From Escherichia coli (GTDB lineage: Bacteria > Pseudomonadota > Gammaproteobacteria > Enterobacterales > Enterobacteriaceae), in NCBI RefSeq assembly GCF_003334815.1, contig NZ_QOWO01000057.1: a stretch of DNA of 13,444 nucleotides; one strand, 5' to 3'. Position numbers and translations under genes: made by a program. Numbering within the stretch: position 1 is the first letter of the stretch; each line of letters starts with the position of its first letter. This document shows, piece after piece, positions 8,246-10,428 of this stretch. The notes below the pieces were generated by a model. The model ran no database searches and had not been told where the DNA came from. It worked only from the letters and a program-made list of their open reading frames with translations.

Positions 8246-8503
8246 TTAACGCGGAGAAATCCCGTAATGTGCAATGCAGCGCCAGCCACCATCCTGCTGA
8301 CAATAAACTGATTCCGTATGCCCAGGGATCACCCATTGAATTTCCTCGCCAGGCGGACAGGTCAGCCAAATGCATAACCCGCAGCCGCCGCGTAAATCAC
8401 GGGGAATATCGCTGACGCGAAAAGTCATGCCCGCTGCCTGCAACGCCTTGCGGGTTTGTATGACGCCGACCGTGGAGTGAAATAAAAACAGATACTCTTT
8501 CAT
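8246..8503 (-). CDS. Small cysteine-motif protein, DUF3343-like (putative Se/S carrier protein-like family), translationally coupled to yjiL
   Basis: 85-aa [50 protein letters not shown]... resembling the DUF3343 pattern (F-x-S-x...A-L...G...PR...CG). Its ATG at 8501-8503 overlaps the yjiL TGA at 8500-8502 (ATGA). No obvious terminator in the 64 bp before yjiK. Confidence 0.6.
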
Positions 8504-9267
8504 GCGCGTTTTCTCTGCCGCTGACCGATCACCGCCGCGCCAATTGCACCAGCGAATTGCGCATCAGGGTGAGTTTGTACCGGCATTCCCAGATGGCTTT
8601 CCAGCATGTGGGTAAACCTTTGACAGTGGCTAACGCCACCAGTAAACAGAATCGGCGCTTCACAGGAGAGACGAGCAATGAAATTGGCGCTCCGCCGCGC
8701 CATCGCGTTAATCACTCCGGCGAGAATCGCTTCTGGCGCTACGCCCGCAGAGCGCAGGCTGATCACTTCTGATTCAGCAAACACTGTGCACATACTCGTG
8801 ATGGCGTGCGGTATGACATTTTCGGTAATGCTGTCGAGTTGCTCGACGCTGGTGCCAAGCGTGCGCGAGATCACCTCCAGGAAACGCCCGGTGCCCGCCG
8901 CGCATTTGTCATTCATCAGGAAATCGCACAGGTTACCGTCATCATCAAGCTGAATCACTTTGCTGTCCTGACCACCGATGTCGATTACCGCGCGCGTTGC
9001 TGGCTCAAGAAACCGTGCGCCCAGCCCGTGACAGGAGATTTCCGTCACTTGTTTATCGGCAAAATCCACCAGTTGCCGTCCGTAGCCGGTGAGCGTCAGA
9101 AACGGCGTTGTCTCTAACCCTTCGCGCAGAGTTTCCCAGGCTTCAGTAATTGCTGTTGCCGGGCGAAAGGGTGTTGGAACGAGGAAACGGCGCGTAATCA
9201 CGCCGTCAGCCAGTAAGATTCCTTTGGTGGCGGTTGAGCCGGAATCAATGCCAATCGAATATGTCAC
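8500..9267 (-). CDS. yjiL: YjiL, ASKHA-fold ATPase of the BadF/BadG/BcrA/BcrD (HgdC-like activase) family
   Basis: N-terminal IGIDSGSTATKGILL nucleotide-binding motif and the activase signature CAAGTGRFLE. The GTG at 9267 (255 aa) is preferred because AAGGAG lies 5 nt upstream; the track start at 9273 has no spacing to that Shine-Dalgarno. Confidence 0.8.
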   Translation of the reverse strand: MTYSIGIDSGSTATKGILLADGVITRRFLVPTPFRPATAITEAWETLREGLETTPFLTLTGYGRQLVDFADKQVTEISCHGLGARFLEPATRAVIDIGGQDSKVIQLDDDGNLCDFLMNDKCAAGTGRFLEVISRTLGTSVEQLDSITENVIPHAITSMCTVFAESEVISLRSAGVAPEAILAGVINAMARRSANFIARLSCEAPILFTGGVSHCQRFTHMLESHLGMPVQTHPDAQFAGAIGAAVIGQRQRKRA

Positions 9268-9276
9268 TGCCACTCC

Positions 9277-10428
9277 TTACAGCATCTCAATAAAGGCCGC
9301 GACACGGGTGCTGAGCTGCCCGACATCCGAGGTGGAGTAGTCTGTTTCAATAGCGATATAAGGAATGTTGTGCTGCTGGCGCACATGACGTTTAATCGCC
9401 AGCGATTCCACCGCGTAGGTATGGCACGCCTGCAAAATCACATCAACTACGCCATCGACCTGATATTCTTCAACCATCTGGCTGAGCATTTGCAGGCGCT
9501 GATCGTTCGGCGAAACACAGGAGCAGCCAATCGCCAGATATTTATCCGCCAGCGCGTCGTACACATCACCCGTTTCCGCCACGCATTGCTCGGTGGCTTT
9601 CGCCCCGGTGCAGTTTTCATAACCGACAACCCAGCCGCCATTCTCTTCAATCGCGCGCACCACTTTCTCTGCTGCGCCGCCAATTGGGCAGCCGGTGATT
9701 AAAATACGTGGGCGCGGGTCCAGTCGCTGGCCTTCTTCCCACTGCTGACGAACGCGGGCGGTCATTGCATCCAGTTCATTGATCAACGCCTCTTTATCGA
9801 ACCGGAAGGTTGCGCCGTAGACTACTTTCAGAATGTCGCTGCCGCTAAGCGCTGGAGGATTTAACTGCCCCAAATGATAAAAGTTGGCCAGTGCGCGACG
9901 TTCGCGGTTTTTCAGCGCAATGGCATCGCGCAGAGCATCTTCGCTAATCTCGTGCCCAAAACGTTCTTCTACCGTTTTTTGCAAGCGCAGCATCTCGGCT
10001 TTCCATAATGCACGCGAGGCATCGTCCTTAACGCTGTTTGGCAGTTGCATCACATGAACGGGCTTAAACTCCGCCATGTATTCATACATTTTCTTTTTGC
10101 CGTCGCAGGTGGTTTCACCGACCACCAGATCCGAAAAGTAGAAGTAGGGGCATTTATCGGTTTTGCCGAAGCCGTAGCTACTTTTAATCAGCGGGCAGAG
10201 GTTGCGCGGCAGATCTTTCTCCGCTTCTTCAATGGTTTCATCAGAGGTGGAACAGAGCGAAACCACAACCGCACCGGCTGCCATCGGGATCTCTTGCGGC
10301 ATAAAGGTGCAGTAAGTGCCAACCAGCGGAATGCCGCGCTCCTTGAGATCCATGACGGTGAGAAAGCCTTTCTGGCGAGCTTCAGAGAACTGATCGAAAA
10401 TGGCGGGTAGATCGGTGACAAGTGACAT
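9277..10428 (-). CDS. yjiM: YjiM, 2-hydroxyglutaryl-CoA dehydratase D-component-like protein (HgdB-like family)
   Basis: 383 aa from the ATG at 10428 (MSLVTDLPAIF...), with a strong GGAAGGA Shine-Dalgarno 5 nt upstream; the track ORF starts 7 codons earlier at a GTG. Cysteine-containing motifs present. Only 9 nt separate its stop from the yjiL start. Confidence 0.8.
   Translation of the reverse strand: MSLVTDLPAIFDQFSEARQKGFLTVMDLKERGIPLVGTYCTFMPQEIPMAAGAVVVSLCSTSDETIEEAEKDLPRNLCPLIKSSYGFGKTDKCPYFYFSDLVVGETTCDGKKKMYEYMAEFKPVHVMQLPNSVKDDASRALWKAEMLRLQKTVEERFGHEISEDALRDAIALKNRERRALANFYHLGQLNPPALSGSDILKVVYGATFRFDKEALINELDAMTARVRQQWEEGQRLDPRPRILITGCPIGGAAEKVVRAIEENGGWVVGYENCTGAKATEQCVAETGDVYDALADKYLAIGCSCVSPNDQRLQMLSQMVEEYQVDGVVDVILQACHTYAVESLAIKRHVRQQHNIPYIAIETDYSTSDVGQLSTRVAAFIEML

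Follow-up and report, generated by a model that had tools for sequence, protein, structure and literature searches.

The yjiM-yjiL-ytiA cassette

The DNA analysed here, a stretch of 13,444 nt from Escherichia coli (contig NZ_QOWO01000057.1, hereafter the window), carries on its minus strand the three genes yjiM, yjiL and ytiA, whose joint function is the subject of this study. The window is E. coli chromosome: its region 7000-11000 (4 kb) is matched in 5391 of 5426 complete E. coli genomes, several of them at 100% identity. The cassette coordinates 8246-10428 reach exactly from the ytiA stop to the yjiM start on the minus strand, and RefSeq annotates the same three coding sequences in a 100% identical E. 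coli chromosome. The locus comprises the following features.

10429..10543, minus strand: yjiN-yjiM intergenic region, the presumed operon promoter region, with GGAAGGA ahead of the ATG
10428..9277, minus strand: yjiM, ATG start, TAA stop, 383 amino acids (aa)
9268..9276, minus strand: yjiM-yjiL spacer of 9 nt, opening with a Shine-Dalgarno-like GGAG (read from the sequence)
9267..8500, minus strand: yjiL, GTG start, 255 aa
8500..8503, minus strand: ATGA overlap of the yjiL stop TGA with the ytiA start ATG (read from the sequence)
8503..8246, minus strand: ytiA, 85 aa

A preliminary description of this DNA, made without database searches, had reported the three genes as packed with a 9-nt gap and a 4-nt ATGA overlap, and this is exact. 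It had further concluded on co-translation and a fixed stoichiometry. The tight coupling stands, as the ATGA overlap points to translational coupling of yjiL and ytiA, but a fixed stoichiometry over-reads such coupling. A second in-frame GTG at 9273 provides an alternative start for yjiL.

The order yjiM-yjiL-ytiA is kept in Klebsiella, Atlantibacter and Cedecea and thus in four enterobacterial genera including E. coli. The junctions are kept as well, so that the co-conservation which the preliminary description had proposed to look for was indeed found. The design of yjiM stop, GGAG and GTG start recurs in all three genera, and the stop/start overlap of yjiL and ytiA appears as GTGA in Klebsiella and Atlantibacter and as TAATG in Cedecea. 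The immediate neighbours of the cassette are different in these three genera; some wider synteny with E. coli exists in Klebsiella (DUF445, MFS transporter and Gate-domain genes, LysR regulator) and none was seen around the cassette in Atlantibacter and Cedecea. ytiA was present at every enterobacterial locus checked.

All three genes are under purifying selection. In comparisons of E. coli with the three other genera, the ratio of nonsynonymous to synonymous substitution rates (dN/dS) is 0.04-0.07 for yjiM and 0.06-0.13 for yjiL, and for ytiA the nonsynonymous and synonymous proportions of differences are pN 0.24-0.28 and pS 0.69-0.86. Because matches to curated families, low nonsynonymous change and recurring junctions come together, the genes are considered real and not chance open reading frames (ORFs). 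As far as the literature searched shows, a conserved three-gene cassette with a DUF3343 protein, the family of YtiA, has not been described previously.

For the regulation of the operon, published data are available. yjiML was placed in the class of genes that FNR activates directly, with a peak in chromatin immunoprecipitation (ChIP) sequencing and FNR-dependent anaerobic induction (PMC3688515). yjiML was also found to be induced upon oxygen depletion in O157:H7, and a study of Ni+Cu stress lists it among the downregulated genes of the FNR regulon. Our scan for the FNR consensus upstream of yjiM returned only sites with three mismatches, at chance level, and a weak half-site only, at 10502-10515 in the yjiN-yjiM intergenic region. 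The promoter and terminator scan called no sigma-70 consensus promoter upstream of yjiM and was uninformative overall. As the motif scan found no convincing box, the FNR link rests on the published ChIP and expression data.

YjiM and YjiL as a predicted double-cubane reductase pair

Proteins carrying a double-cubane [8Fe-9S] cluster were reportedly described structurally in 2018. [quoted passage not shown] By its sequence, YjiM is a member of this family, i.e., a predicted reductase and not a HgdB subunit lacking HgdA. It reaches 532 bits with the equivalog model NF040772 ('double-cubane-cluster-containing anaerobic reductase', curated cutoff 350 bits) over model positions 1-372 of 372. Among solved structures, residues 26-383 match chain residues 62-421 of the DCCP structure 6ENO_A (also 7YYL) with 4.1e-75, while the structures of BzdN, MbdN and HadC match more weakly (1e-13 to 1e-19). 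The preliminary description had called YjiM a HgdB-like dehydratase component. This is correct at the level of the superfamily, since YjiM belongs to HGD-D/BcrC (PF06050), but it does not hold for a HgdB-type dehydratase, as YjiM passes the DCCP model and stays far below the dehydratase subunit models (HadC 95.8 bits versus a cutoff of 700; HadB 19.9 versus 750).

The cysteines point in the same direction. When 90 DCCP sequences from 80 loci plus E. coli were aligned, eight columns showed no variation (90/90), and these are represented in YjiM by C40, C59, C78, C93, C108, C273, C302 and C335. The published seven-cysteine motif is complete (C40, C59, C78, C108, C273, C302, C335). C59 aligns with the non-ligand Cys94 of the Carboxydothermus hydrogenoformans protein, DCCP_Ch, and the six putative ligands of the [8Fe-9S] cluster were assigned from the published motif. 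Furthermore, Asn76 aligns with Asn111 of DCCP, a residue that forms a hydrogen bond with one of the cluster ligands in the reductase (PMC9351452). YjiM is predicted to be the catalytic, electron-accepting component, with an expected [8Fe-9S] cluster. A second ORF of the PF06050 type, HgdA- or BzdO-like, occurs neither in the 13.4-kb window nor in a 19-kb RefSeq stretch. That only one dehydratase-like gene is present had been counted correctly in the preliminary description; a reading as a missing subunit falls away, because DCCPs are homodimers and a single gene is what one expects.

The identity of yjiM and yjiL as such is already known from RefSeq product names, from Jeoung, Martins and Dobbek 2020 (PMC7317905) and from the Haft 2022 preprint. 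In its passages on YjiM, the review by Jeoung et al. describes the protein as a putative class II DCCP that works with YjiL, and these passages name only YjiL as partner. Reading YjiM as a DCCP corrects the persistent mis-annotation '2-hydroxyacyl-CoA dehydratase subunit D'.

The assignment to class II is in good agreement with our sequence comparisons. In YjiM, the first motif cysteine is preceded by 39 residues, compared to a median of 76 in class I, so that the N-terminus is shorter by approximately 37 aa, which fits the published idea of absent channel-closing N-terminal helices. In a neighbour-joining tree, YjiM forms an exclusive clade with nine proteins of 380-396 aa, which derive from Lachnospiraceae, a Tissierellia metagenome-assembled genome (MAG), a goat-rectum Bacillota MAG, Pelotomaculum and a Desulfotomaculaceae MAG. 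Identities to YjiM are 45-59% within this clade versus a median of 37% for class I. YjiM belongs to a distinct, short class II clade that is also found in gut Clostridia. A scan of 1.84 billion cluster representatives gave 379 representatives at E <= 1e-30, about two dozen of them full-length (377-402 aa, 38-51% identity). Word-indexed searches, for which YjiM, YtiA and a class II profile served as queries, found matches almost only in Enterobacteriaceae or Lachnospiraceae and left the sampled taxa no broader than before.

One member of the 50%-identity library, P0362 (722 aa), combines a YjiM-like domain (residues 1-383, 51% identity) with a C-terminal part of approximately 340 aa, the end of which resembles, by eye only, a PucR-type helix-turn-helix; it is either a true fusion or a merged gene call. 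A three-way fusion was considered for this protein and set aside, its parts being the YjiM-like domain and the stretch resembling the PucR-type helix-turn-helix.

YjiL is, by its sequence relationships, an ATP-dependent reductase (archerase) of the DCCP-R/HgdC type (PF01869) and the likely partner of YjiM. The preliminary description had named it a HgdC/BadF-type ATPase, which is confirmed by 358 bits with TIGR00241 ('acyl-CoA dehydratase activase', cutoff 125 bits) and by the structure matches HgdC 1HUX (1e-52), HadI (2e-51) and DCCP-R 7YYL_E (5e-47). The profile searches proposed there as a check thus placed both proteins in related families (PF06050, TIGR00241) and not in unrelated ones. 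The N-terminal motif GIDSGSTATKG, of the ASKHA phosphate-binding type, is present. According to the 1HUX alignment, Cys122 aligns with the HgdC cluster ligand Cys127, and Cys160 lies within the conserved CTVFAESEV helix. In DCCP-R the cluster ligands are C115 and C152 (PMC9351452).

Papers on antimicrobial peptides repeatedly cite a 'YjiL-MdtM transport system' for the uptake of proline-rich peptides, with Krizsan et al. 2015 named as the source. YjiL itself is an iron-sulfur ATPase of the cytosol, and yjiL (8500-9267) is separated from mdtM (11865-13196) by yjiN and yjiM.

The structurally solved counterpart is the DCCP/DCCP-R pair CHY_0487/CHY_0488 of C. hydrogenoformans (PDB 6ENO, 7YYL, 7YZM, 7YZQ). 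[quoted passage not shown] Through hydrolysis of ATP, an electron is driven to the pair of [8Fe-9S] clusters, which reduce acetylene, hydrazine or azide (PMC9351452). YjiM belongs to the same curated hidden Markov model family as this DCCP and is approximately 39% identical to it across the whole catalytic domain. All motif cysteines are retained, as is the Asn that contacts the reductase. The gene arrangement is similar, too, with an adjacent reductase gene (yjiL, 9 nt downstream) and one catalytic gene, consistent with a homodimer. In contrast, YjiM does not have the approximately 37 N-terminal residues (class II, predicted open channel) and falls into a separate clade, and E. coli has a third, coupled DUF3343 gene which most of the sampled class I loci do not have.

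Two further systems are related more distantly. HgdAB/HgdC and HadBC/HadI (PDB 3O3M, 1HUX, 4EHT) share with YjiM and YjiL the superfamilies and the ATP-driven injection of an electron by a homodimeric [4Fe-4S] ATPase, but they are heterodimers with one [4Fe-4S] cluster and three cysteine ligands per subunit, use CoA-ester substrates and are activated once for subsequent catalytic turnover. Unlike these enzymes, YjiM fails their curated models and carries the double-cubane cysteine set. Class I benzoyl-CoA reductase BzdNO/BzdPQ (PDB 8S02) is ATP-driven as well, and its subunit BzdN, to which YjiM matches with 2.5e-19, binds an [8Fe-9S] cluster. There, however, the double cubane is an electron store beside the separate catalytic subunit BzdO, and YjiM has no such partner.

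YtiA and the sulfur and selenium genes around DCCP loci

YtiA matches Pfam PF11823 (Se_S_carrier, formerly DUF3343) with 6.1e-14 over residues 3-59. The family owes its name to a prediction based on gene context, and its conserved cysteine was noted in the same work (Lin et al. 2015). Homologues across the Enterobacteriaceae show 54-96% identity and share the invariant core D-I-P-R-x-L-x-G-C-G-L; the conserved loop of YtiA reads D32-I-P-R-x-L-R-G-G-C41-G-L-C44. Across 34 aligned enterobacterial sequences, C41 does not vary and C44 is conserved in at least 90%, and homologues from Clostridia, Desulfosporosinus and a Poribacteria MAG retain the Cys-Gly column as well. The AlphaFold 2 model is of high confidence (mean predicted local distance difference test, pLDDT, 90.7) and shows a beta-alpha-beta-beta-alpha-beta(-beta) fold of the ferredoxin-like type; the conserved motif occupies the beta2-beta3 loop, and C41 lies at the end of this loop. 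Foldseek with this model found no specific solved relative; the best matches were PII proteins (E = 0.015, TM score ~0.5).

Two other roles were considered for YtiA. A TusA/YedF (SirA-like) carrier was rejected, as the TusA-type fold with a CPxP active-site motif was not found, and a ferredoxin is unlikely because only one cysteine is conserved family-wide.

Ribosome profiling of enterohaemorrhagic E. coli revealed a translated novel ORF of 267 nt and assigned the promoter of this ORF to yjiM (PMC4765031). As an 88-aa allele of ytiA (267 nt including the stop) exists in E. coli, this ORF is probably ytiA, matched by its length. E. coli alleles of ytiA comprise 85, 87, 88 or 89 aa and vary mainly in the C-terminal tail (window 8246-8320), which is frameshifted in one of them; the cysteine loop is identical in the three alleles compared. 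Clusters of 49-70 aa also occur and are possibly truncated alleles or fragmentary gene calls.

To place YtiA in context, 80 DCCP loci were taken from contigs of one genome per species, and their ORFs were searched with an iterated YtiA profile. A reductase gene was called in most of these loci and usually adjoins the DCCP gene. A DUF3343 gene lies near the DCCP or reductase genes in 13 of the 80 loci, in nine cases directly after the DCCP gene (L018, L027, L032, L050, L053, L059, L060, L067, L080) and in four at a distance of 3-7 kb (L008, L011, L013, L021). Adjacency goes along with class II: DUF3343 is adjacent in seven of nine loci with a YjiM-type paralogue versus two of 71 others (Fisher p = 4e-7), a statistic that is biased, since the loci were sampled via class I hits, and uncorrected for phylogeny. 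Nine of the 80 loci carry a gene similar to cysteine desulfurases and selenocysteine lyases (Csd/Scl-like), and all nine carry DUF3343, so that such a gene is found in nine of the 13 DUF3343-bearing loci. SelD is encoded within 10 kb in 11 of the 80.

Several individual loci illustrate this context. In Dorea longicatena, the YjiM-type gene faces an operon of a desulfurase-family gene, a class I DCCP, a Se_S_carrier and a reductase; the desulfurase-family protein obtains 432 bits with TIGR01977 (cutoff 377) and 393 bits with the selenocysteine lyase model SclA, which is under the cutoff of the latter. The class II locus L074 of a Desulfotomaculaceae MAG (6014-14567) consists of YedE (499 bits), a flavin-reductase-like gene, SelD (379 bits), a class I DCCP, a class II-like DCCP, a reductase, SaoT and SaoE, and is thus flanked by YedE and SelD on one side and the Sao genes on the other. 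Here, the thioredoxin-like (seleno)protein SaoT follows the reductase gene, which is the position of ytiA in E. coli. At L080, a regulator of the selenium-metabolism LysR type (LysR_Sec_metab, 282 bits, cutoff 250) is situated between the reductase and the class II gene.

Two loci add minor observations. At L040 (Pelotomaculum propionicicum, 16346-18343), a LarE-type sacrificial sulfur transferase and a MoeB/ThiF-type adenylyltransferase are encoded near a class II-like DCCP/reductase pair, with SaoT and SaoE upstream, which represents another sulfur-relay context. On the short metagenome contig L091 (2038-2277), a flavodoxin-like ORF (MIIYFSGTGNSEYLAKKL…) follows the class II DCCP gene, and its product could plausibly supply the reductase component with electrons.

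Published contexts are in good agreement with these findings. In Slackia heliotrinireducens (Lin et al. 2015), a DUF3343 protein of the same Pfam family and with the conserved cysteine is encoded beside genes for a 'CoA-substrate-specific enzyme activase' and a '2-hydroxyglutaryl-CoA dehydratase subunit'. STRING links it to these genes, to a selenocysteine lyase (Sec-lyase) family gene, to YedF and to SelD; the cluster also contains SelAB. The dehydratase and activase genes appear there only in a table and are not discussed. The three-gene core is all that E. coli keeps of this arrangement, its selenium genes lying elsewhere. According to the Haft 2022 preprint, 955 of 970 NF040772 proteins occur in SelD-encoding genomes; DUF3343 is not mentioned there. 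As far as the literature searched shows, a tie of DCCP modules, DUF3343, Sec-lyase-like enzymes and SelD has not been described. The preliminary description had taken the DUF3343-like partner as a hint at a sulfur- or selenium-linked step. Gene context across DCCP loci supports such a link of the cassette, as an association and not as proof.

Proposed function, alternatives and neighbouring genes

Taking these observations together, the cassette probably encodes an FNR-activated, anaerobically expressed reductase system of the class II double-cubane type, ATP-driven and oxygen-sensitive, in which YtiA would serve as a chalcogen carrier and which may mobilise selenium (or sulfur). The parts of this proposal differ in strength. 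The enzymology predicted for YjiML is well supported by homology, while the substrate of YjiML and the role of YtiA are hypotheses. The literature searched gives no substrate, as the preliminary description had said.

By homology to the C. hydrogenoformans system, YjiL would be a homodimer with one bridging [4Fe-4S] cluster that takes up an electron from a cellular low-potential donor and docks on the YjiM homodimer. ATP hydrolysis would then drive the electron from YjiL onto the [8Fe-9S] double cubane of YjiM, and this cluster would reduce its substrate at a potential beyond that of ordinary reductants. The short class II N-terminus is thought to leave the site of YjiM open for larger substrates. 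Judged from its context, YtiA may act as the third component. This small protein of ferredoxin-like fold, whose loop holds a single invariant cysteine, would most likely bring sulfur or selenium to the active site of YjiM or take it away from there, bound as a persulfide or perselenide. As physiological task, our best guess is a reductive mobilisation of selenium (or sulfur) species under anoxia, with selenide passed on towards SelD. H2Se ranks as a very strong reductant, its potential being close to the potential of H2 (PMC5187540), and a low-potential route towards it therefore makes chemical sense, which does not amount to a need for it. YjiML would thereby become a candidate client for the uncharacterised DUF3343 family.

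Several points weigh against this proposal. DUF3343 was not found within 10 kb in 67 of the 80 DCCP loci, mostly class I, nor at the class II-like loci L040, L074, L089 and L092; at L090 and L091, also class II-like, the contigs end early. Because most class I and several class II-like loci lack it, a DUF3343 partner is not general to the DCCP family. A strict rule joining class II and DUF3343 is weakened further by additional class II contexts from the 50%-identity library, mostly short contigs, which show a reductase gene and no DUF3343. In E. coli, no selenium or sulfur gene stands beside the cassette, and the SelD correlation may just reflect an anaerobic lifestyle. The reduction of a persulfide or perselenide has no obvious need for an ATP-energised electron. 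The literature searched reports no experiments on YjiM, YjiL or YtiA, and Jeoung et al., in their passages on YjiM (PMC7317905), favour a CoA ester or another large organic molecule as substrate.

This last suggestion leads to the alternative that YjiML, as a class II DCCP, has a CoA ester or a different large organic compound as its substrate for reduction, with no link to sulfur or selenium, and that YtiA is an accessory or unrelated small protein. Jeoung et al. argue from the missing channel-closing helices, in line with the N-terminus of YjiM being shorter by approximately 37 aa; moreover, BzdNO, which also contains [8Fe-9S], uses benzoyl-CoA, and an ABC sugar-type transporter follows one class II gene. 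Yet genes for a CoA-ligase, a CoA-transferase or an acyl-CoA dehydrogenase lie beside the cassette neither in the four enterobacterial contexts nor in the clostridial ones, the recurrent neighbours are sulfur and selenium genes, and ytiA is coupled to yjiL and kept at every enterobacterial locus checked. We consider this alternative unlikely. Still less probable is a role of YtiA outside catalysis, in maturation, where it would supply the bridging mu2-sulfide (or selenide) for assembly of the double cubane. DUF3343 is present at all nine loci with Csd/Scl-like genes, which such a sulfur relay would lead one to expect, and Haft notes that the cofactor itself could account for the SelD link, with selenide raised as a formal possibility. 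Most DCCP loci, however, do without DUF3343, and the C. hydrogenoformans DCCP gained its [8Fe-9S] cluster when expressed in E. coli (PMC7317905), which is a weak point given that this host carries ytiA.

A promiscuous small-molecule reductase for anaerobic detoxification of nitrogen oxides or of compounds like azide, hydrazine or acetylene would build on the only activities demonstrated for a DCCP (azide, hydrazine and acetylene), and the operon shares the FNR regulon with genes for handling nitrite and NO. It is nevertheless quite improbable, as narrow small-molecule channels belong to class I, not class II, and as it leaves YtiA and the selenium-gene neighbourhoods unexplained. The original reading as an atypical 2-hydroxyacyl-CoA dehydratase, in which one HgdB-like subunit is activated once by YjiL for ketyl-radical dehydration, is essentially excluded. 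It could draw on the common superfamily PF06050, on the older database names and on YjiL, which resembles HgdC and HadI to the same degree as DCCP-R. However, YjiM misses the HadB and HadC cutoffs by far and passes the DCCP model, it has the seven-cysteine double-cubane motif in place of a three-cysteine site, the window holds no second PF06050 gene, and the DCCP cluster is a site of reduction, not of dehydration.

Returning to selenium (or sulfur) mobilisation, a bolder version can be formulated, which we regard as rather doubtful at present. Here, the cassette would provide the first physiological role for a DCCP system, namely the anoxic, ATP-energised extraction or reduction of selenium (or sulfur) from thiol-refractory species, with the Cys41 loop of YtiA docking in the open class II channel, where it would accept or donate the chalcogen atom, and the product going to SelD. 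If true, this would explain the near-universal co-occurrence of the DCCP family with SelD as well as the linkage of DUF3343 and Sec-lyase, and the genetics available for E. coli K-12 would allow a test. Through the third gene and the neighbours seen elsewhere (Sec-lyase-like, SelD, YedE, LysR, Sao), what was a vague 'unknown reductase' becomes a concrete hypothesis open to testing by deletion. With one compact, FNR-controlled double-cubane system, E. coli offers a handle on the open question of what DCCPs do.

In RefSeq, the gene order around the cassette is yjiC … hypT, iadA, yjiG, yjiH, kptA, yjiJ, yjiK, ytiA, yjiL, yjiM, yjiN, mdtM. An Rfam scan of the window found no RNA family. The longest ORF of yjiK (window 7321-8292, minus strand, 323 aa, start 8292) overlaps the 3' end of ytiA by 47 nt; the RefSeq start at 8181 (286 aa) leaves a gap of 64 nt after ytiA. 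No terminator-like site was called in this gap, and so yjiK might be co-transcribed with the cassette. In the RefSeq locus, from a genome taken as a 100% match on the basis of identity established for 7000-11000, yjiH is marked as a pseudogene with a frameshift and an internal stop (window coordinates 4579-5258). The window itself carries at this place, on the same strand as the RefSeq pseudogene, an uninterrupted ORF of 231 aa at 4575-5270.

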